Shown here piece after piece: positions 25,727-63,807 of a stretch of 64,000 nt of DNA. The stretch comes from a virus. The notes under the pieces were generated by a model. It did no database searches and had not been told where the DNA came from. It was given only the letters and a program-made list of their open reading frames with translations. Position 1 is the first letter of the stretch. Every line of letters starts with the position of its first letter. Location: positions 1 through 64,000 of IMG/VR virus record IMGVR_UViG_3300025132_000023; one strand, written 5' to 3'. The translations under genes were made by a program, and so were the position numbers.

Positions 25727-27151
25727 TCACGCACTACTTAGGTTGGTTATCTTACCTTGTCCCTTAAAGAAGGAACAACCAGTCTCTGCAATCGTGCGGT
25801 ACATAGCCTGATTGCCGAGTTTTGCAACACCGAATGGGTTGCCGTGGTCAATACCATCCTCAAAGTATTGGGTTGGCTTCATAACAGATAGCCACAGGTG
25901 GTCTGTGTCTAGTATAAGCATATCACTTAGGTCTGTTGCAGCAGCCGTCTTTGTGGTAGAAGGCATATCCTTGCAAGGTATGATGGGTATGTCGAAGTAA
26001 GTAGCGACCCTAAAGCCGACTTCTGACCCCTTTACACCTCTAACACCATTATGGGTAGGGATAATCTCCTTTCTGTCCATAAATCGCTCTTGGGACTGTA
26101 GTAAGTCACCAATGTGCTGAATGGTGTCATATCCTGTTAGGATAACCTTTGGGCTTCCTCCAGCCTCTCTAATGTTCCTTAACGCCTTGTTAAGGATTGT
26201 TAGAGTTAATGGCCTAGTAGCAGAGTAATCTCCACCATAGTCCACATAACTGTCAATAAAGCCACCATCACCAGAAACGGTGATTGCTCCATTAGCCCCA
26301 GAAGAAGTTCCGGGGTTTCTTGCAGTATTACCGTATAACGTGTAAACCTGTGGTTCTGCTCCTGTTGAAGCATCGGTCTTACCATCATGTAGCATATCCT
26401 CGTTATACATCTCACCAATCTCAGCCTTTGAAGAAACTATCTTCATTAAAGAAGTGTAGTTTAGTCCAACGTTTTGTTCTGCATAAGACTTTCCACCTAC
26501 GTCATACTGTTCAAGAGGCAATAGTAGCATTGCATTCTGAACTTCAGCATGGTGCTTACCCATGTCTTCACGGATTAGAGCGCGTATGTCTCCAACACCG
26601 TCATCAATCTTTGCCATCTCAAGAGCCAATTCTGAGAACTCAAACAAATGAGCCACAGTCTTTGGGCTGGTCTTAAGTTGTGCATAGGTTGGTGTAATCG
26701 CAGAAATGGTTCCGATTGTTGTGTCAGAATCAGCATTAATTGGCGCGTTTTCACCGTATGCTCCTAGCATATCTGCTCTTAGGCTATCTGCACCCTTTGC
26801 GACAGTATTGCTAGTATCAAACGCTCCTGAGTTGAACTTGTTGTTACCGCCACCGGCTGCTCTCTTCTCTAGCACTCTCCATCCAGAAGCCGTATATGGC
26901 CTCTTTGGAAGCATTGCCAAAGCATTACATTCTTGGTTTATCATTGACCATACTTTCTTACCGTATGCAATGTTATATAGGGCTGATACTGCCGTTGGGC
27001 CACCGCCGGTTAAACCGCCTAATGAACCATCGTGGGCTGAACCTAGTCCACCGACAACACCTGCTGCCTTAAGCAGCGAATTTCCCTGACCGCCCCTAAT
27101 TCCATAGGTTGCGGCTTCCAAATCTCTCATTGACTTAATATATCCACTCAT
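25727..27151 (-). CDS. Major capsid protein (HK97 fold)
   Basis: Follows the protease; YGKKVWSMINQE..., PKTVAHLFEFSE, PKVILTGYDT, VATYFDIPIIP, QGKITNL; elevated GC and strong RBS. Confidence 0.9.
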   Translation of the reverse strand: MSGYIKSMRDLEAATYGIRGGQGNSLLKAAGVVGGLGSAHDGSLGGLTGGGPTAVSALYNIAYGKKVWSMINQECNALAMLPKRPYTASGWRVLEKRAAGGGNNKFNSGAFDTSNTVAKGADSLRADMLGAYGENAPINADSDTTIGTISAITPTYAQLKTSPKTVAHLFEFSELALEMAKIDDGVGDIRALIREDMGKHHAEVQNAMLLLPLEQYDVGGKSYAEQNVGLNYTSLMKIVSSKAEIGEMYNEDMLHDGKTDASTGAEPQVYTLYGNTARNPGTSSGANGAITVSGDGGFIDSYVDYGGDYSATRPLTLTILNKALRNIREAGGSPKVILTGYDTIQHIGDLLQSQERFMDRKEIIPTHNGVRGVKGSEVGFRVATYFDIPIIPCKDMPSTTKTAAATDLSDMLILDTDHLWLSVMKPTQYFEDGIDHGNPFGVAKLGNQAMYRTIAETGCSFFKGQGKITNLSSA

Positions 27152-28440: not shown

Positions 28441-30957
28441 CTAAACTTGCATGGTTAACTTTTTATGCCTGTCTTCAGTAATATCCCATATTCCTTCGTC
28501 TTTATCCTTATCTAGCATTTTCTGCTTAATGCCTGTCCAAACCACCCATGTATCTTTTTTCTTTACAGGAACTACTCTAAAGTGTAATCTAGTCTCAAAC
28601 TTATCACCATTTAATTTATATTCATGGTAACCATGCCTTTGCACTCCTAACTCAATCTCTCCAGAATCTAACAATTTATCTCTTGTTGTCTTCGTAGAAA
28701 CTTGTGCAGGAAACTTACCTGATTTTCCAAATAAGTTGTAAATATCTTCTGCATCTTCTATATCAATTGTCCATGCCATTTCTTTATCGGACGTTCTAAT
28801 AACCATTTCTAAGTTATCATCACTACCGTGGTATAATAAAAACTTACCGTTCTTTGGTGTCTTTTCTGCTTTTATTAATTTATCTCGGTTGGCAGTATAT
28901 TTATCCTTACTTACTTTAATAAAATCATCTTGGTCATTCATCCAATTAACCATTCTTTTAATTTCACCTGACCACAAATCTTCAACTAACTTAGGTATCT
29001 TCTCTTTACAGAAATTAAATATCTCATTTATATGTAATCCCTTCTCCTCTGTATCTATTTCTTGTAAATACGCTTTGATTGCTACTCTAGCATCTCCAGA
29101 CTTTGCCTTCATTAACTCTTCAATTTCATGCTTCCACATATCCATGTCGGCTAAAGCATTCTTTTCCATTAAAGAATCTCCGCTAAAACCATACACAGTA
29201 AACCCTTCAAAATCTGATTTCATTATTATATCTGCTTCACCGTGAACACCATCAGTTATTACAAACTTTGTTAATGCGTCTTTAACATCATACTTTAATG
29301 ATTTTCTACCTTCTTTAGATAATAGGTCTAATGTAATTAATTTCTCTGGAGCATCTACTTCTGGGATTTCTATTACCTTTGCAGTATATAGTTTATATCC
29401 ACCATTGTTCTTTCTAACTTCATCAACCTTAACTCTTACAATATCTCCAACATCTACCTTTTCTTTAGTATTTAATGCTTTACCAACTGCTAGATATTTT
29501 AGACCTTTTAATTCTGTACCCCCATGTTCTCTTGCTTCTTCTCCGCTAAGTGGCCCTGCTCCTAAAGTATAGGAATTAAGGTTAGACTTAGTAGATTTCT
29601 TATCTAATACAATTAAATCTAAATCTACAAACTTCTTTAATTTAATCCACTTGGGATTTTTCCTACTACCAATATAATAAGTAGACTCTATGTCTTTGAT
29701 AACAACGCCCTCAGAAGTTGGTAATTCCATAATGTCTTTTGAATATTTTTCTATTTCTGATAAAGAATCTGCTATTCTAGTATTCTTTTTATTAGGGAAT
29801 CCTAGTTCATCAGAAGAATGTTGTGCTAACTGATAGAATAGAATGTTTATCCGTTCTCTTAATGGAGTATCAGTTACATTCTTTCCTTCGTGATGTAGTA
29901 TGTCAAACACCCTAGCCTTTAATTTTGCTTCTGGATATTTTCCTTTGAATAGGTGTGCAATAGTATCTGCACGGTGTAATGGTTCATCACCATCATATAA
30001 TATAATTTCAGCATCAAAGATACTATCACCAAATCTTTTTTGGTCTAGTTTGTCAACAATATCTTTACATTTGGAAGTAATATCTTTTTCATTATATGAA
30101 TAGATTTTAACCTTGTCTTTTATTTTATGTAGTTGAACTCTAATGCCATCGTATTTTTCTTGAACTACCCACTCTCCACTAAATCCTTTAAGGTCTTTAA
30201 TATCATTGACTTCAAATATTCTATACATGGGCTTGTTTGGTACTATAAAATCTGTCTCTTCTTTTTCTTCTTCAGACTTTTCTTCTTTTGCTTTCTTTAG
30301 TCTAATTGCTATTAATGCTTCCCAATCTTCTTCTGTGTTGTCCACTAAGAAAACTTTCTTTAATAATTCTAACGCTGGCTTAAACTTGGGTTTAACCTTA
30401 GAAGTATCCTTATCATCTCCATAGTGTTCTATAATGTAAATAGGTATGTCATCTAATCTAAGGTCTAATCCCATAGCCCCCTCAGAAATGTTACCTATGT
30501 TCACATCGTTCTTCTCCCATGCCGCCGCAGATATACTGTGTGCGTGCGTCCGTAAGGCATAGTGTATGAACATAGCATATATAGAGGGTTCAGTTACAAA
30601 CGTTTCTATAACATTATCTCCCAATTGTTTAGCAAAGGGGTCATTAACTTCGTCAGAATTATAACGCATTCTTTTAATCTGAGCATATAAATCCCTTGCT
30701 TGACTAGACTCTGCATCAAGTGCATTCTTATCAAAAACAACGTCTTCATCTAAATATCTTTTCATTTCATTAGTAAAACTACTAAGTCCATCAAAATCAT
30801 CTCTTATCTTCTTAACAGACTTTCTCCAGTCTTTACCATATTCAGTAGGGTCTTCTCTCGCAGATAAATATCTATATCTTACATCTTCATAGAAGTCAAG
30901 GACACGCTTCGCAAGCCCTGCATTCTTTTTGCGAAAGAAGAGTCCAGACTGTGCCAA
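28441..30957 (-). CDS. lig: ATP-dependent DNA ligase with long N- and C-terminal extensions
   Basis: Motif I QEKYDGIRVQLHK, FDAE, VFDIL, EGVVIK, WIKLK, followed by an OB-fold-like region. Confidence 0.85.
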   Translation of the reverse strand: MAQSGLFFRKKNAGLAKRVLDFYEDVRYRYLSAREDPTEYGKDWRKSVKKIRDDFDGLSSFTNEMKRYLDEDVVFDKNALDAESSQARDLYAQIKRMRYNSDEVNDPFAKQLGDNVIETFVTEPSIYAMFIHYALRTHAHSISAAAWEKNDVNIGNISEGAMGLDLRLDDIPIYIIEHYGDDKDTSKVKPKFKPALELLKKVFLVDNTEEDWEALIAIRLKKAKEEKSEEEKEETDFIVPNKPMYRIFEVNDIKDLKGFSGEWVVQEKYDGIRVQLHKIKDKVKIYSYNEKDITSKCKDIVDKLDQKRFGDSIFDAEIILYDGDEPLHRADTIAHLFKGKYPEAKLKARVFDILHHEGKNVTDTPLRERINILFYQLAQHSSDELGFPNKKNTRIADSLSEIEKYSKDIMELPTSEGVVIKDIESTYYIGSRKNPKWIKLKKFVDLDLIVLDKKSTKSNLNSYTLGAGPLSGEEAREHGGTELKGLKYLAVGKALNTKEKVDVGDIVRVKVDEVRKNNGGYKLYTAKVIEIPEVDAPEKLITLDLLSKEGRKSLKYDVKDALTKFVITDGVHGEADIIMKSDFEGFTVYGFSGDSLMEKNALADMDMWKHEIEELMKAKSGDARVAIKAYLQEIDTEEKGLHINEIFNFCKEKIPKLVEDLWSGEIKRMVNWMNDQDDFIKVSKDKYTANRDKLIKAEKTPKNGKFLLYHGSDDNLEMVIRTSDKEMAWTIDIEDAEDIYNLFGKSGKFPAQVSTKTTRDKLLDSGEIELGVQRHGYHEYKLNGDKFETRLHFRVVPVKKKDTWVVWTGIKQKMLDKDKDEGIWDITEDRHKKLTMQV

Positions 30958-56176: not shown

Positions 56177-56679
56177 AATACTCCTCCTAATTGTCGCCCG
56201 GTTTAACTTATTTAACCATTAAAACTGAAAATTTGGCCCGTCATTTATTTGCCACTTGCGATTTTTCTTTTGCTCTTTTTATCCTATTCCCAGAATAAAA
56301 ATAGTTTATTGTTTATTTAACTAGATAAAAACGTATTAATCTCTTGTATCTCTTTACGCGACCCGCGATTTATTAATAGTTAATTATGCACCTTTACCTT
56401 TAGTGCGCTCTCTCTATATGACCCATGTGCGCCTACTATTTAGAATGTGACTTGACACAATTAACATTTTAAGCCTGTTATAACTAAACAAATCATTAGA
56501 ATATTAAAAGAAAAAAATCGACCCAAAGCATATGGTCATGTAAAATACATAGACCCGTCAGGAACTTCTTCCAACAACGATAGTCGTATTCAGCGTTCAA
56601 TGGAGCATAATAGTGATAGCACTTATTATTGGCCTCATTCTCTGAATACTCATCGTTTGTTTACATCGTTCCATATGGT

Positions 56680-57616
56680 TGTCTATTAGGACGTATTACG
56701 GTATTACAAGGAGTAAACGCCAGCACTTGCGCGGTGTTAATAGAACTCTATTCATAAATAGAGCCTAAGCGGTAGTTCGTAGTTAACACAGCGGCAGGGT
56801 GCTTGGTCGTTTACTTCCTTGTAATACCCAAATGTCCATATAAGACATTGCCCGATAAATGGGGATATATGCCGTTACACTAACATGAAATGTATTCACT
56901 CCGTTGCATTGGAGAGCAAGAGTAAATTCCGGGACGTTTAGACTCTTGCTTTAGCAATCCCTGCACATTACTCTGCTCTCCAATCCTCTACGTTTACATA
57001 CATTTCATTACACTACCATATGGTTACTTAGTCATGGAGTAAGGCAAGAATGTGCGTATTCAGTCAGGCTCCTAAGAGTCTGAGTCTAAATGTGGTGAAT
57101 ACCGCATTCTTGCCTTACTCCGAGCAAGATAATCCCATATCGGGTTCTTTTGATTTATGGTCTGTCTCAAACAGTTCAGATGCTAATCATAAACTTTTAG
57201 CAGAGACAGTACCGCTTAGGCTGAGTCTTACGACTCCCTTATGCACGCTAACTACCTCCGGCTGTTATCGTACCGCTAAAAGATTATGTTAACATCATCA
57301 CAACTCACCAGACCTTTTCTTTTTTAATTAACAACCATATGGTTTAGTAAGTGGTTGGTTTAAGGCGGGAACCTATGTAGAATGTTAAACACGGCTGTTC
57401 TTAAGAACGAGCCTAAGCGGTAGTGTTGGAAATTCTACCGGGTTCCTCGCCTTAAGCACAACCCTACATAACCAGACATCGGGTAACATTCGGTTAATCC
57501 CAACATTCACTCCGTAGTATCTCCTGAACGGAACCTGTATTGACATTTAGATTAACGCTTAAGCGTTCATACTTGGTTCCCTTCAGGTTATCTCACTTCG
57601 TTCATTTAACCTCACT
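56680..57616. repeat. Three double-hairpin non-coding units (U1-U3)
   Basis: Long imperfect stems, e.g. GGTATTACAAGG 56700/CCTTGTAATACC 56817 and GGAGTAAGGCAAGAATG/CATTCTTGCCTTACTCC at about 57036-57121, each with the conserved loop motif. Confidence 0.85.
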
Positions 57617-57664
57617 ACCATATGGTAGGCTGTGCTTTGCTAACAGAATGCCCGATAACGGGAC

Positions 57665-57907
57665 TTACTTCATTGTTACGATTTTACAGCAATTACCCAT
57701 TTTTACTCTTAAATCGCCTAATTCCATTCCGCAGTTATTACATATCTCAATCATTATTTTTACATCCATTAAACCAGCACCAATAGAACGAGGAATCACA
57801 TTCTTTACAATCAGGAGGGAGAGTATCTCTCATTCCTCTCCCCCCTTTTTACCAATAGCATATATTCTACAAAACTCTGCATGAGCCTTTAACAAGTTCC
57901 AACTCAT
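57665..57907 (-). CDS. Three coupled micro-ORFs (57830-57907, 25 aa; 57747-57833, 28 aa; 57665-57754, 29 aa)
   Basis: MSWNLLKAHAEFCRIYAIGKKGGEE; MRDTLPPDCKECDSSFYWCWFNGCKNND; MIEICNNCGMELGDLRVKMGNCCKIVTMK; each start overlaps the previous stop. Confidence 0.55.
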
Positions 57908-58626
57908 TCTTCTTCCCCCATTACAAGTTTAGTTGTTTCTGGGGAGCATTGATATGAAGCCTCACTAATTATCTTCGTTTCGCAATCAACAGTATGTGTT
58001 ACTTCACAAGCACTTAATTCTGTAAGGGTACTTTCTACTGCCTTGCGTATTCTTAGCATCTCTGCCAATGGGACTTGAACAACTCTATCTTCTACTGCCT
58101 TTCTATCTGTTATTGACTCCACTTCATAAGTAATCCAAAAGGTTAGAGTGTAGGTATGACCGTAATTATCAAGTCTTGTTAACAAAGTTACGTTATCGTC
58201 ATATTTCAGCATGGCTCTACCATAAAAGGACTGTGTGCCATTAGTAGGCCCAAAGTAAATACCTAGATATGGGCCTCTTACGCGCATCCACTTATCCATA
58301 GTCTTTGTAGTCTGAACTACGGCTACATCAGTATTAATACCATAGTCTGTCAATCCCTTCTGTGCTAGTCTTGCTTGACTACTGTAATCTAACTCCATAA
58401 GGACTTGACCGTTTTCATCAGTTACTGCATAAGTAGTGGTTGTATCGTCCGTTGATTGAAAGCCGTATAATCTAGCATCATCCTCAGGATTATCATAGTT
58501 ATAGTTACTAGTCTGTGCTATGCCTCTATCATACAACATACTCTGCACCTTATTAGGGTGAAAGTTGACTTCTGACATATCTGTATCAAAGACTATTTCC
58601 ATTTTTCTCTCATAGATAGTCATCAT
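57904..58626 (-). CDS. Hypothetical protein (cassette 1)
   Basis: 240-aa ORF; AGGTGA RBS; ATGA overlap with the upstream gene. Confidence 0.7.
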   Translation of the reverse strand: MMTIYERKMEIVFDTDMSEVNFHPNKVQSMLYDRGIAQTSNYNYDNPEDDARLYGFQSTDDTTTTYAVTDENGQVLMELDYSSQARLAQKGLTDYGINTDVAVVQTTKTMDKWMRVRGPYLGIYFGPTNGTQSFYGRAMLKYDDNVTLLTRLDNYGHTYTLTFWITYEVESITDRKAVEDRVVQVPLAEMLRIRKAVESTLTELSACEVTHTVDCETKIISEASYQCSPETTKLVMGEEE

Positions 58627-58826
58627 TCATCACCTATCGCTTCAACGTAGTCTGATAGTGCAGATTGCATATCAGCCATTACTTCCTTTAGGTTATCACC
58701 AGATACTCGTAGTTTGCTAATACATAGAACAAGGGCAGACCCCGATTTCATATGCTTAACTTCTAGCACGTATTTTGGCTCAGTTATTGGTATTGTTTCA
58801 TTATTCTCGTTCATCATTTGAATCAT
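58623..58826 (-). CDS. Small hypothetical protein, probably leaderless (cassette 1)
   Basis: The track start (58880) lies inside the palindrome; ATG 58826 is about 25 nt downstream of the TGATATAT box. Confidence 0.55.
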   Translation of the reverse strand: MIQMMNENNETIPITEPKYVLEVKHMKSGSALVLCISKLRVSGDNLKEVMADMQSALSDYVEAIGDE

Positions 58827-58885
58827 TCTTATGTTGGGAGATGAATATATCAGGTGAGTGTTAGCAAAGCACACTACCATATGGT
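58824..58885 (-). promoter_or_regulatory. Cassette promoter: ACCATATGGT-n-CTTTG-n-CACCTGATATATTCA-n-CATAAGAATG
   Basis: Nearly the same element recurs at about 59979-60041; variants at about 59540-59586 (-) and 61173-61212 (+). Confidence 0.6.
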
Positions 58886-58931
58886 TTGCTTTGCGTTAAA
58901 CCGGAGAGGTGGAGAGGGGCGCAAAACCCAC

Positions 58932-59471
58932 CTATTCCTCCTCATCGCCTCCGATGAAGGATACCACAGGATAACCGTTCTCATCATAAGAACCATCCCA
59001 ATGGTATTTCTTTGACATATCTCCGTTTGCGTGTGCATTGAATGCCGCATTAAGGAACAATCGCTCCTTCTTCACGCCATCCTTAGCAAAGACAGTTTCA
59101 CCGTCTGTTAGGGTGTTGTAAAGAACTCCACCCGACTTACCGTGGGTTCTTGCCGTAGCATAAACCGCAGGATAAACCACATCGCGTAGGCTGATGTAAA
59201 GCGTATCATTAAGGTAAAGGTCGAAGGAAGACTTCGTTGCCGTATCCATAAGGGACTTTCGGCCCTGTCCAATGGGCGAATTTGCCACATCGGTGAATAC
59301 ACCTACAATGCTGTTCCAATATCTCTTACGAGTGCTTGGGTTAGCATCACCGAGAGCGAACATTGAACGCACAATCATTGCCAAATCGCTTTGGTCTGGA
59401 TTAACTGCGAACCACTCTTCAAGGTCAGTTTTCTTTGTTTCCCACTTGCTGTCATCTATTTCATTACTCAT
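58932..59471 (-). CDS. HGKS-motif protein, paralog A (cassette 2)
   Basis: 179 aa; aligns by eye with 61278-61787 (W..K, GD.N.STR...NSI, R.HGKS.G, WDGS). Confidence 0.75.
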   Translation of the reverse strand: MSNEIDDSKWETKKTDLEEWFAVNPDQSDLAMIVRSMFALGDANPSTRKRYWNSIVGVFTDVANSPIGQGRKSLMDTATKSSFDLYLNDTLYISLRDVVYPAVYATARTHGKSGGVLYNTLTDGETVFAKDGVKKERLFLNAAFNAHANGDMSKKYHWDGSYDENGYPVVSFIGGDEEE

Positions 59472-59601
59472 GTTATCAATCTCCGAAAAGGTTTGATAGG
59501 TTTGCGCCCCTAAAATTCCTCTCCATTATTATAATTCGGTATGAACATATGAGGTGTGTTTAATACAAAGTAACACACCATATGGTTTTACTTTGTGTCA
59601 A

Positions 59602-59981
59602 AAACCAGACGGGAGAATTGCTCAGATTTAAACATGGGCTAAACTACCGTGATTCCATGTCTGAGGCTTACGATTCTCCGCTAAGAGTCTGAATGGGTTT
59701 TGTTTCGTGCTTTCCTAAGGCACTCTCAGACCCGACTGAGCAAATGAAGTGGATATTGGACTCTCTTTCGATTACCAATAAAGACGCATGGGCGTTAGTT
59801 CTACATATCTTTGAGTATACAGTTCTAACCCGCGCTTACCCCGTATTACCCCGCTAAGGGTGTTGTCCTGCCTTTCCTTTGTAAGAACGACTCGGTGGCC
59901 CGCTAAGGCCCAATACGGTTGCTTTACACCCTAACGATGGTGTTATTCAGCCAATCCGTGGTGACTCGCGAAGGTCACCAT
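59602..59981 (-). ncRNA. Putative ~380-nt structured non-coding RNA (cassette 3)
   Basis: Lies behind the same promoter as cassette 1; only a 12-codon ORF follows the ATG; many GC-rich hairpins, three capped by an identical UUAGCG loop. Confidence 0.55.
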
Positions 59982-60041
59982 TCTTATGATTAAGGGTGAA
60001 TATATCAGGTGCAATTGACACAAAGTATCACACCATATGGT

Positions 60042-60950
60042 TTAGTAAGTATGCAAGTTAAACTTGCAAAGGGAGGGAGTTAAACTCAGGTGTAAGGGCC
60101 AAAGGCCTAATCTAAATGTTGCCTGAGTGGACTCCTCAGTTTGCAAGTTTAACGCCAGCATCTACATAACCAGATTTGAAAATCTGGTACTGGGTTATCT
60201 TGCATCGGCTAAAGGTAGACTATGAGCAGCACGAACACTAAGGCTCGTATTCTTAGGAACACGCCTTGCTGCTACTATTCTACCTTTAGACGCTGACTAA
60301 GTAACCTTAATACCATATGGTAGTAGAAAGGTCTTTTTAGTATATTGGTGCTATAAGAATAATATATATGTGAGTTCAAACTCAAGCCTAAGCGTTCATA
60401 TAAATTATTGTAGTTGCGTGCAACTGCCCTCTTATAGTGCGAATCTAATAAAAAGCATATAGAAGTCATCTTTTTACGCAGTAAAACGGGGCTTATTTTT
60501 GTAGGCTTTCAAGACCCCAATTTTCTCTGGTATGGTTATCTTGCTCCGAAGTGTATTCTGTTACTTGCAGCAACCACACTCAGGCTCGTAATCTTAGGAC
60601 TACGACTTGCTGCAATTAACAGCATACACTCCGTTGACTAAGTAACCTAATACCATATGGTTTGATAAAGTGGTTTGCGTTTAGACGCTAGTTTACAGAC
60701 GCAAAATCTACGGTCTGGTTTAGTAACAAGAGGTCACCAAAGTGACAATCTAAATGTCTCGCCAGTTAATCAACCAGAGCGTAGAGTTTGGGGCTTAAAG
60801 TAGCGTCTAAACGCATAACCCATATCATTCCCGATAAATAGGGTATGTATTCCACATAGCGAAAGCCGAAGGAGATAAACCTATGAACACTTAGGTTCTT
60901 GTTATGACAAGCCCTATGTTCACCTCCTTCAACCTCGCAGTTCCATCATT
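60042..60950. repeat. Three double-hairpin non-coding units (U4-U6)
   Basis: e.g. GTTAAACTTGCAAA/TTTGCAAGTTTAAC, TGCGTTTAGACGCTA/TAGCGTCTAAACGCA, GGTTATCTTGC...TGACTAAGTAACC (twice), with the same loop motif. Confidence 0.85.
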
Positions 60951-61277
60951 ACCATATGGTAGTATAATTAGAATTAGATGGGTTAATCGTATCTGTTAAA
61001 GTGTAGGATTCGGAACCCGTCCCTTGTGAATCGAATTAGCGGTCACCCGTGACCCCTGACCATTTTTCTTATTTCTCGTTTTTCCAAAACGCGATAATAA
61101 CCTTAACATCCTCGCAGAAAACGGCTTGTTTTTCCTTCTCGGCCTTTCAGACCCCTGAAAAACGCTATCATTACCATATGGTTCTGCTTTGCACGGAACC
61201 TCTTATATATCCGATGACTGTCCCAAGAATGCCCCCGAAACTTGGGCGCGAAAGAAAATACACATAGGTGATAAAAG

Positions 61278-61787
61278 ATGGAAGATATTGAGTGGGATTC
61301 AGTAAAGATAAAAGTAAGCACTATGCTTGAAGGTAACGCGGAAGTTGGAGACATTCCAGAAGACGTTGTTACTCTAGCACAGATGCTAATAACGACTGGT
61401 GACAATAACGCTTCAACGCGTGATTCGTTGACCAACAGCATTAAGGATATGCTAAAGCCCTACGCGGGTTATCCTTGGAAGAGAGGCAATCAGGGCATTC
61501 TACCTGCCGCAGCACGCGCAGTAGTGGATTCAGCAACTGATAACATCCGAGAGGCAGCAAGAGAGTTCTTTAACTCTACTTCGCAGTATTCTCAGCCCCT
61601 TCTACGAAAGCACGGAAAGAGCAAGGGTTCCCCTGTTTACTCCGATGCTGACGAGTATGCAAACGAACTTGCTTCAAAGGCTCGTAAGGCTGCAACACAA
61701 CTCTTCAAGGATGGAGAGTGGGATGGTTCGCTATCCGGTCTTGCTGCTTGTGCGGCTTATGACGACATAACCACGGAGGATGAGTAA
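61278..61787 (+). CDS. HGKS-motif protein, paralog B (cassette 4)
   Basis: 169 aa; AGGTGAT RBS; TTATATAT box near 61203. Confidence 0.8.
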   Translation: MEDIEWDSVKIKVSTMLEGNAEVGDIPEDVVTLAQMLITTGDNNASTRDSLTNSIKDMLKPYAGYPWKRGNQGILPAAARAVVDSATDNIREAAREFFNSTSQYSQPLLRKHGKSKGSPVYSDADEYANELASKARKAATQLFKDGEWDGSLSGLAACAAYDDITTEDE

Positions 61788-62124
61788 TTCTTCCTTCGTT
61801 AACCTAAGTTTCGGGGTGCAACTACCGGAGGGGGGAATAGGGCTTAAAGGCCTTATTTCCCTCTCCACTTCTTTCAGGTTTTTGCTGGAAGCAAAGCCCA
61901 GATAAAACCATATGGTAGTGTTTGGCTTCTTAACGGAGGGGGGCCGCGAGGGGTTCCGCACCGTTTATATGTTCTCACGAAAGGGTATGATTGCTTTCGG
62001 CATTAGCGTTCTATTAACGCAGAAAGAACCTAATCTGATAATTCCAGTATATGAAAGGACTCAGATTTATGGTGTAAAAAGTTACTGCCGTTAAAGAGTG
62101 GGGAAATTAATAGTGGACAATGAG

Positions 62125-62400
62125 GCTTATATGTATAATATATCCATTATGTATATACATATCCATATGCCATATCCTATATGATATGATAAGGGAGTCA
62201 ATTTCTACAACTCATCCCCCCAAAAGTAGGCATGATATGTCATGTTTCTATTATTCTAGTGGGGGTAGAATAATGAAGTGGACATGATGTGTTAGGATAT
62301 AAGTAATAAGTTAATATATTATATATTATTATATTATTATTATTATTATTATACTCTCTTACTACTCCTCCTCCTCCTCCTCCTTTCGGGGTAGGGGGGT
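62125..62400. repeat. AT-rich / simple-repeat tract
   Basis: CATAT-type repeats at about 62128-62190, (ATT)n at about 62315-62352, (CCT)n followed by a G-run at about 62364-62400. Confidence 0.7.
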
Positions 62401-62475
62401 GGAAAAACGATAAAAATAGAAAGATGCTAGAAGTGGGCATATAGTATTATCTTTACGGGAATTTGTGATGATATT

Positions 62476-63720: not shown

Positions 63721-63807
63721 TGCGGGATTCCCAAGTATGGTCAAAGGGGCCGGACTTAAGATTCGGTGCGTAGTGCTTCGGGGGTTCAAATCCCCCTCCC
63801 GCAACCA
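63721..63807 (+). tRNA. tRNA-Leu(TAA) with encoded CCA
   Basis: Acceptor TGCGGGA/TCCCGCA, D-arm with GG, anticodon loop CTTAAGA, long variable arm, T-arm GGGGG-TTCAAAT-CCCCC, ACCA end. Confidence 0.9.

Follow-up and report, generated by a model that had tools for sequence, protein, structure and literature searches.

This study focused on a 10-bp palindrome, ACCATATGGT, and on the small units that its copies delimit in the genome of a virus held as IMG/VR record IMGVR_UViG_3300025132_000023. The complete record is 96,167 bp long, and the window, the stretch of DNA from which the analysis started, comprises its positions 1-64,000. Copies of the palindrome divide a 5.4-kb region between two divergent gene blocks into units that are either non-coding pairs of hairpins or genes and RNAs placed behind their own promoters, in both orientations, as had been proposed from the sequence beforehand. 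The explanation considered most probable, with a likelihood put at a little over one half (about 0.55), is that these palindrome-bounded promoter cassettes are the archaeal-virus counterpart of the promoter-early stem-loops (PeSLs) of T4-type phages, that the palindrome is read by a protein, and that units are exchanged without a dedicated recombinase. The region would then be a hyperplastic accessory block built of self-contained mini transcription units, in which a composite of palindrome, stem and promoter would serve as upstream control site and promoter together. No sequence other than the palindrome is identical at every boundary, and recombination between its copies would delete, insert, move or invert whole units, the promoter of each travelling along with it, and because the palindrome is symmetrical, joining would be possible in either orientation. 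General or microhomology-driven recombination, followed by selection for intact units, could bring this about, as has been proposed for PeSLs.

The original prediction counted 11 exact and two one-mismatch copies of the palindrome in this region and noticed none elsewhere in the window, and both statements were confirmed (Table 1). Only 0.06 exact copies would be expected, none of 100 shuffles reached 11, and there is no exact copy outside the array in the complete 96,167-bp genome. The 8-bp core, CCATATGG, is intact in just one of the two one-mismatch copies and occurs 12 times genome-wide, every copy lying within positions 56671-61916, with about one expected from composition. The spacings given earlier for the non-coding units (345, 319, 283, 280, 340 and 299 bp) were also correct. 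Beyond this genome, 60 related viral loci, several of them derived from one and the same contig, hold at least three exact copies at the same strand-switch region, and copy number varies between relatives from 3 to 23. Pairs of palindromes about 300 bp apart were present in 26 stretches of other marine viral contigs (65-99 kb), and a scan for the palindrome together with CTTTG, a motif described below, returned many more contigs with several copies. Homologs of P0002, the protein encoded next to the array, still have 3-14 exact palindromes just upstream when they are only 41-57% identical to it. No DNA match to the array region was found in the GenBank phage collection. When cellular genomes were scanned for palindrome plus CTTTG, the matches listed included only single ones in unrelated taxa, which is chance level and uninformative on use by a host.

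Conservation of the palindrome is concentrated in its core. The arrays of 26 loci contain 210 exact 10-mers, and 45 of the 51 one-mismatch copies deviate solely at the outermost base, inner mismatches being no more frequent than background. The core is therefore conserved far beyond the needs of base pairing, and without covariation, which argues for recognition of the sequence by a protein at each site and implies a putative dimeric protein that would read CCATATGG. The confinement of the palindrome to one region bears on a different origin, in which the units would be non-autonomous transposons, similar to miniature inverted-repeat transposable elements (MITEs), with ATGGT...ACCAT ends, and tandem insertion would form the palindrome wherever two such ends abut. 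In favour of this are the half-palindromes at the limits of the units, the presence of units in both orientations and the differences in their position from one relative to another. A transposon would scatter, however, whereas the palindrome is absent from the rest of the 96-kb genome, and no transposase and no target-site duplications were found. The contents of the units are also unrelated to one another (protein genes, a manA-like RNA, hairpins), and a transposon origin is regarded as scarcely probable.

The second constant feature is a promoter. Both flanks of 377 palindrome sites from 25 genomes were lined up, and in 165 flanks CTTTG was present at most 16 nt away (background 1.4%). In 88 of these 165 the sequence continues into ACC, a gap of 1-4 nt and a TATA-like box, and 22-26 nt past this there is an A/T-rich initiator-like box (e.g. 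AAGAATG or TATAATG) that sometimes merges directly into an ATG. Judged by its sequence, this architecture is that of an archaeal promoter with B recognition element (BRE), TATA box and initiator, and the centre of the palindrome lies about 55-60 nt upstream of the expected start. The composite is found four times in the genome under study (0.66 expected), each time beside a palindrome. Palindrome and promoter are further tied by a short stem, in which the palindrome's outer GGT(n) pairs with (n)ACC 20-25 nt away and CTTTG occupies the loop. At least five consecutive Watson-Crick pairs (GGTn..CTTTG..nACC) can form in 49 of 155 distinct flanks, while permuted partners gave a mean of 8 and a maximum of 18. 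Cassette 3' ends carry the same stem without a TATA box. The unit of repetition is thus a predicted element of about 55 bp that joins the invariant palindrome, a stem-loop and a promoter, and it probably acts as an insulator or terminator stem-loop as well.

The third line of evidence comes from relatives, which were aligned as the original prediction had suggested, and in which module order, orientation and content were found to change at the palindromes. Outside the array, L034 and L037 can be aligned without rearrangement for more than 8.5 kb, at 92-95% identity; within the array the order and orientation of modules differ, with modules 6, 7 and the second half of 10 of L034 inverted in L037 and the ends of the inversions on core sites. 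Across five genome pairs, 66 of the 116 ends of homology blocks inside the arrays lay at most 6 bp from a core site, where 7.1 would be expected (p 7e-49). L034/L037 alone gave 48 of 64, and in a second lineage (L019/L024) 8 of 20 block ends were at the core. Apparent break points in the middle of double-hairpin units proved to be sites that keep the core and have altered outer bases (ACCATATGGA, CCCATATGGG). The M2 unit of the window (56998-57344) sits after the manA cassette in L029, the match ending 17 and 1 bp from palindromes, and M1-M3 are absent from their corresponding place in this relative, which has 315 bp there instead of 924 bp. Not every close pair is shuffled: L038/L039 are collinear, and L012/L093, like the window genome and L031, are nearly so. 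An assembly artefact was judged unlikely, on the reasoning that a 10-bp repeat is shorter than the usual word sizes of assemblers. In sum, the palindrome is confined to its region, conserved in relatives and placed at module boundaries, and on these points the original prediction held.

Break points of this kind could also be produced by a dedicated, active site-specific system resembling a shufflon, in which an unrecognised viral enzyme would pair, cut and rejoin copies of CCATATGG, whose self-complementary centre would permit either orientation, so inverting, excising and reinserting cassettes during infection, and promoter linkage would be secondary. That enzyme could be the P0001/P0003 family, P0002 with a partner, or an unassigned open reading frame (ORF). 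The sharpness of the break points (0-6 bp from the core), the fact that even those within units fall on core-bearing sites, the near-absolute conservation of the core, and the many reorderings and inversions accumulated by L034 and L037 at 5-8% divergence beside collinear flanks all agree with such a system, as does the shortness of the shared sequence, 10 bp of identity being too little for efficient general recombination. The P0001 family adds to this, as it is the constant cargo (40 of 60 multi-site loci), with invariant RGNQG and RKHGKS motifs and a fold without known match. Several of these features have other explanations, however: the fixed spacing to the promoter already accounts for conservation of the site, and selection for intact units would alone place surviving break points at boundaries. 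The collinear and nearly collinear pairs show that shuffling is not constitutive, the site is far shorter than known recombinase core sites, and neither a tyrosine or serine recombinase nor a Y1 HUH transposase or TnpB was detected. On balance a cassette shufflon was judged rather unlikely. If it were nonetheless real, with exchange within and between co-infecting viruses, site-specific recombination would gain a new class of system, genes would have a new route by which to spread among the most abundant archaeal viruses of the ocean, and the hairpin pairs would be a new family of viral RNA.

The search for a recombinase or HUH nuclease, which the original prediction had called for, covered the complete genome. 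No match at E <= 1 was found there to PF00589 (tyrosine recombinase) or PF00239 (serine recombinase), and none to PF01797 (Y1 HUH transposase) or PF07282 (TnpB), control genomes being positive in both cases, and a dedicated site-specific system was to this extent not borne out. Candidates for general recombination are a Sak4/RecA-like AAA_24 protein and a Cas4-like nuclease of the replication arm.

Several observations weigh against the PeSL-like explanation. For general homologous recombination, the 8-10 bp of identity between sites is a very short stretch, PeSLs having about 100 bp in common, and the number of L034/L037 rearrangements at such low divergence resembles an active process. An operator would not usually have a core that almost never degenerates, a trait commoner in the sites of nucleases or recombinases, and binding to the palindrome, by P0002 or by any protein, is an inference. 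Flanks of the hairpin type have no recognisable TATA box. In the small CTTTG stem the outward strand carries 14 G.T and no A.C mismatches although the stem lies upstream of the TATA box, which a simple promoter model leaves unexplained. This bias means that some single strand of outward polarity includes the 3' half of the palindrome; candidates for it are a read-through transcript, an RNA whose start lies within the palindrome, and extruded DNA.

PeSLs are "mobile regulatory cassettes" of T4-type phages (Arbiol et al. 2010, PMC2839356; Comeau et al. 2014, PMC4122927), which flank ORFans in hyperplastic regions and shuffle genes and signals by recombining with each other (PMC2839356). In both systems a repeated composite of promoter and stem-loop borders small genes of unknown function in a hyperplastic region, indels and replacements between close relatives end at the repeat, and a shuffled gene keeps its expression signals. 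The present array has the composite motif, concentrates it within 5.3 kb together with cargo proteins that belong to no Pfam or PHROG family, and differs between relatives in segments bounded by the motif. There are also clear differences. PeSLs carry a sigma-70 early promoter in bacterial T4-like phages, whereas the promoter here is of the archaeal BRE/TATA/initiator type, which makes the array a functional analogue and not a member. PeSLs show looser similarity over about 100 bp, and the element described here has an invariant, perfect palindromic core of 8-10 bp; inversions are common in one of its lineages, and its cargo includes structured RNAs (long hairpins and the manA-like RNA). For PeSLs, activity as promoter and terminator and excised mini-circles have been demonstrated, whereas the present cassettes are known from sequence. 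What this window newly contributes is the RNA cargo, with its stand-alone manA-like RNA and strand-specific hairpin pairs, a stem linking the palindrome with the ACC of the promoter, and a GcrA-like neighbour predicted to dimerise.

Other known systems are more distant. Shufflons and invertases (R64 Rci/sfx; Hin, Gin, Cin) use a dedicated tyrosine or serine recombinase and longer, asymmetric sites, and rearrange parts of a single gene. Like them, the array has several short sites that delimit segments of varied order and orientation, inversions included; its units, however, are independent and bear promoters, and neither type of recombinase was found. Integrons depend on IntI, on attC sites that are imperfect palindromes of 57-141 bp, and on promoterless cassettes in the same orientation. 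Both systems line up small units of unrelated content between palindromic elements capable of single-strand folding, but here the palindrome is a perfect one of 10 bp, no integrase was found, and units are self-promoted and face both ways; the original prediction had likewise set attC aside. CRISPR is ruled out, as it had also stated, by the 10-bp repeat and the long, structured spacers. From IS200/IS605-type or MITE-like elements the array differs in having no Y1 HUH or TnpB match and no sites outside its region.

The original prediction of an undescribed cassette system therefore stood in part: a cassette system is present, but it is not without precedent, as T4-type PeSLs are a close functional analogue (PMC2839356). 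No paper was found that describes a palindrome-bounded cassette system, and the palindrome string itself was met in the literature only as a primer or cloning sequence. The papers on magroviruses, the viruses to which this genome appears to belong, make no mention of repeats, promoters or this region as far as they could be searched, and a Red Sea mdRNA-Seq paper gives no MG-II promoter motif. The PeSL-like reading would make the turnover of accessory genes visible and would extend the principle of the "mobile regulatory cassette" from T4-type phages to archaeal viruses.

The non-coding cargo consists mainly of six units of about 300 bp, each with two long hairpins that face one another (12 hairpins of about 80-140 nt). 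In all 12 half-units the strand that runs outward from the adjacent palindrome folds better than its complement, by 5-13 kcal/mol. In the stems of 25 hairpins from five genomes, G.U pairs outnumber A.C mismatches by 79 to 2 when the outward strand is read and by 27 to 21 when the complement is (p 3e-21). Selection of these hairpins for the folding energy of their outward strand biases this count somewhat, whereas the 12-of-12 result is free of such bias. Compensatory changes between hairpin orthologs numbered 27, against 7 in a shifted control. The base of the hairpins is conserved, the middle stem is highly variable and yet remains paired, as in M2-L, where both of its arms are swapped between 96%-identical genomes, and the apex is nearly invariant. 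It consists of a mini-hairpin followed by single-stranded YCUAARYG, each unit having one apex of the AAUCUAAAUGU type and one of the AGCCUAAGYG type. Of the occurrences of this apical motif, 29 are downstream of a palindrome and 5 upstream, with a concentration in the clade of the window genome, L029 and L040. The hairpins of L034/L037 are of a different subtype, with GCAUUAAGC loops that always have that sense on the outward strand. The simplest reading is that the hairpins would be a clade-specific family of RNAs of about 80-140 nt, transcribed away from the palindromes, and with their strand specificity, conserved tips and variable stems they are candidates for new RNAs.

Some further proposals on the hairpins were discarded. 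One stem uses the palindrome's GGT, and in several the distance from the palindrome's first base to the start of the stem is 11-22 nt. Such stems are too close for a transcription start about 26 nt downstream, and the palindrome was on this account rejected as a TATA box for the hairpin RNAs. A guide or antisense role of the variable stems within the virus's own genome was likewise not upheld, with four matches of at least 15 nt outside the array and four for shuffled queries. The tRNA-Leu(UAA) gene at 63721-63807 (+) has the anticodon loop CUUAAGA, and loops of the mini-hairpins at the hairpin tips read CUAAGA or UUAAGA, which may be coincidence; a likeness of the apical motif to a tRNA D-arm was not supported by this same tRNA. 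A tRNA is located near the array in three relatives too. At the centres of some double-hairpin units (57120-57146, 56830-56880 and 60815-60850), decayed palindrome-like sequences (CCCATATCGGG, TCCATATAAG, CCCATATCA) stand beside a CCCGATAAnGGG mini-hairpin, and these may be former boundary sites.

In another reading the palindromes, with their flanking stems, would act at the level of RNA, as processing or termination signals in long array transcripts from which hairpin RNAs, the manA-like RNA and mRNAs are released. Stems that start in the GGT of the palindrome carry G.U or G.T on the outward strand only, and hairpin-type flanks are without a TATA box of their own. The polarity of folding, however, flips at every palindrome, and one precursor could not hold all hairpins in their stable sense. 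Four units own complete promoters, a self-complementary RNA of 10 nt folds only weakly alone, and invariance without covariation points to recognition by a protein, most simply of double-stranded DNA. RNA processing is for these reasons considered improbable. Of the roles that the original prediction allowed for the palindrome, those of a recombination or inversion core and of an operator have evidence in their favour, including the near-fixed distance upstream of a special promoter class, and for RNA processing no positive evidence was obtained.

It is also conceivable that the array is a replication origin, in which the palindromes would be initiator-binding iterons and the hairpins single-strand initiation signals. 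The array sits at the divergence point of the minus-strand structural arm and the plus-strand replication arm, where the cumulative GC skew has its minimum, and an adjoining replication arm, many copies of a strict, putative protein-binding site and strand-specific hairpin folding would all be in keeping with an origin. The switch in skew is explained equally well by the change in gene orientation, however, and an origin would not be expected to vary from 3 to 23 copies with shuffled order and orientation. Hairpin polarity flips at each palindrome and not at a single point, and sites are tied to promoters at a set distance. An origin of replication is accordingly considered quite improbable.

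Table 1. Features of the palindrome array and its surroundings. Positions are those of the window unless a relative is named.
Feature	Position	Strand	Remarks
Degenerate palindrome AGCATATGGT	56527-56536		core broken; left edge of array
One-mismatch palindrome TCCATATGGT	56670-56679		core CCATATGG intact; L029 homology stops exactly here
Hairpin M1-L	56695-56833	+	apex mini-hairpin and CCUAAGCGGUAG
Hairpin M1-R	56885-57008	-	apex GUCUAAACGU
Palindrome ACCATATGGT	57015-57024		exact
Hairpin M2-L	57026-57161	+	main stem 57036-57121; middle stem replaced on both arms in L031 and L029, still paired
Hairpin M2-R	57188-57288	-	apex AGCCUAAGCGGUA
Palindrome	57334-57343		exact
Hairpin M3-L	57347-57467	+	two compensatory pairs relative to L031
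Hairpin M3-R	57523-57587	-	apex AAUCUAAAUGU
Palindrome	57617-57626		exact
Two-gene cassette	57904-58826	-	67-aa ORF 58623-58826 (probably leaderless) and 240-aa P0004 57904-58626
Stem-loop (CTTTG loop) and ACC/TATA promoter	58840-58875	-	promoter 58876, leading to the 67-aa and 240-aa genes of the two-gene cassette
Palindrome	58876-58885		exact; CAAAG/CTTTG on either side
Cassette gene P0003, 179 aa	58932-59471	-	weak paralog of P0001
Stem-loop and ACC/TATA promoter	59540-59576	-	promoter 59577, leading to the 179-aa gene (P0003)
Palindrome	59577-59586		exact
manA-like structured RNA (RF01745)	59746-59981	-	own transcription unit behind promoter at palindrome 60032
Stem-loop and ACC/TATA promoter	59995-60031	-	promoter 60032, leading to the non-coding (manA-like) RNA
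Palindrome	60032-60041		exact
Hairpin M7-L	60045-60165	+	apex AAUCUAAAUGU
Hairpin M7-R	60193-60306	-	half-unit 60174-60303 replaced in 96%-identical L031
Palindrome	60312-60321		exact
Hairpin M8-L	60331-60456	+	four compensatory pairs relative to L031
Hairpin M8-R	60547-60646	-	
Palindrome	60652-60661		exact
Hairpin M9-L	60676-60815	+	stem strongly altered in L029; apex and base retained
Hairpin M9-R	60859-60938	-	
Palindrome	60951-60960		exact
222-bp non-coding module	60961-61172		contains T-runs; conservation extends to L029 and L040; may be a small RNA
Palindrome	61173-61182		exact
Stem-loop (GGTTC..CTTTG..GAACC) and TATA promoter	61183-61215	+	promoter 61173, leading to the 169-aa gene (P0001)
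Cassette gene P0001, 169 aa	61278-61787	+	most widely conserved cargo
Last palindrome	61907-61916		exact; hairpin and TATA-like box TTTATATG about 57 nt downstream
P0002, 223 aa	62476-63147	+	GcrA/Myb-like three-helix helix-turn-helix and C-terminal four-helix bundle
manA-like RNA in relatives	L029:5856-6087, L033:6416-6644, L040:7610-7848, L034:4483-4706, L026:6765-6998		

One cassette carries a structured RNA that resembles manA. The full length of the model is matched with 46.4 bits (E 1e-9), short of the gathering score of 55.2, beginning at the expected transcription start site. Equivalent cassettes in five relatives match manA over the full length as well, with 32-54.3 bits, and each stands directly behind a promoter of palindrome, CTTTG and TATA box; across the six genomes, positions 1-192 of the model are covered and E values range from 1e-4 to 4e-11, none of the six reaching the gathering score. 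The motif has hitherto been viewed as a leader element of bacteria and cyanophages, most known examples coming from marine metagenomes; in its description a leader role was given as probable, and the sources were marine metagenomes, cyanophages and gamma-proteobacteria (Weinberg et al. 2010, PMC2864571). The whole-model match, the conserved CUGAAUAA and GUAA elements in the cassette and the marine origin agree with manA. What differs, besides the sub-gathering scores, is the setting in an archaeal virus and not in a cyanophage or gamma-proteobacterium, and the arrangement: the RNA is not the 5' leader of a gene, as it starts right after its own promoter and is ended by the next palindrome, which again has a promoter. 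From this arrangement, manA in these viruses is taken to be a stand-alone unit, and part of the metagenomic manA set may derive from archaeal viruses. An independent gene of this kind in an archaeal virus bears on the function of the motif. Apart from the manA-like match and the tRNA-Leu, a search against Rfam gave only weak miRNA-type matches on the hairpins, which were put down to chance. Three hairpin loops of the manA-like RNA read CUUAGCG, which is near the YCUAAGCG apex motif of the long hairpins.

The four cassette proteins belong to no Pfam or PHROG family, and all have an acidic C-terminal tail (...MGEEE, ...IGDE, ...GGDEEE, ...TTEDE). Homologs of the P0001 family came only from marine metagenomes. 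The predicted model of P0001 is all-helical (pLDDT 79.5). Foldseek found no fold match for it in the PDB, the protein atlas gave no usable match, and a wide search with VIA-align returned only generic three-helix matches with Z of 7.5 or less. Between palindrome 57617 and the 3' end of the 240-aa gene, a non-coding stretch (57626-57900) is about 89-90% conserved to L029/L040, compared with about 75% for the neighbouring coding sequence; it opens with a CTTTG box and a CCCGATAACGGG hairpin and has no TATA box.

The protein proposed to bind the core as a dimer is P0002, whose gene adjoins the array. A homolog lies just beyond the end of the array in every relative whose locus extends that far (23 loci). 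The N-terminal domain superimposes on the DNA-binding domain of GcrA (5yiu) with a probability of 0.99 and an rmsd of 0.9 A over 43 residues, at 30% identity. The Pfam match of P0002 itself to PF07750 is below the cut-off (E 0.094; 13.5 bits against 26.9), and some homologs carry PF07750. The C-terminal bundle is strongly conserved (KNxQYGDS...RIDDKLNRL...DLIGYLILL), and a symmetric homodimer of this domain was predicted with a score of 0.57, the best of three controls scoring 0.00; the runs agreed in at least 96% of contacts, with a pLDDT of the partner of at least 71. Among proteins of known structure, 20 of 30 that had been solved as pairs of one chain attained that mark, as did 1 of 23 solved as single chains, rough counts for which the alignment used was our own. 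P0002 resembles GcrA, a cell-cycle regulator of Caulobacter, in the three-helix DNA-binding fold; it differs in its C-terminal domain, which is another helical bundle, and in its context, the models PF01555, PF02086 and PF00145 having found no DNA methyltransferase in the genome. On the strength of these structure predictions P0002 is a candidate reader of the palindrome, and magroviruses would thereby have a concrete class of promoter with a strict palindromic control site and a candidate protein to read it. The P0002 family has 680 members in marine metagenomes.

The genome itself appears to be that of a magrovirus-like, group B-like tailed virus of archaea. Its capsid protein (25727-27151, minus strand) is of the SU10/HK97 type, and its nearest annotated relatives, about 23% identical, are from tailed viruses of haloarchaea and from a Methanofastidiosa virus. 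The right, or replication, arm codes for a family B DNA polymerase (PolB) in two ORFs, an RFC-like ATPase, an ATP-dependent ligase, ThiF and ribonucleotide reductase, as well as the AAA_24 (Sak4/RecA-like) protein and the PD-(D/E)XK/Cas4-like nuclease mentioned above. A split PolB has been reported for group B magroviruses (Philosof et al., PMC5434244). The assignment follows from the length of 96,167 bp, within the 90-100 kb or so of such tailed viruses, the archaeal-type replication set with its split PolB, RFC-like protein and ligase, and the capsid affinity; the original prediction of an archaeal virus is upheld by the capsid, the split PolB and the BRE/TATA-type promoters. In the surface ocean, magroviruses rank with the most abundant viruses; both they and their hosts remain uncultured. 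To our knowledge, almost nothing is known of gene control and genome change in these viruses.

A few features of the surrounding genome are recorded here. The two PolB ORFs lie at L043:7702-9363 and L043:9866-10777 (G000 86702-88363 and 88866-89777), with about 500 bp between them. Between the last palindrome and P0002, positions 62100-62420 are A/T-rich and of low complexity, with (ATT)n and (CCT)n runs and short ORFs. A canonical three-domain ligase is encoded in the replication arm (L042:14740-16269; G000 77740-79269), and a second ATP-dependent DNA ligase domain is found inside an 838-aa protein of the structural arm (28441-30957, minus strand), giving two ligase domains in one genome.

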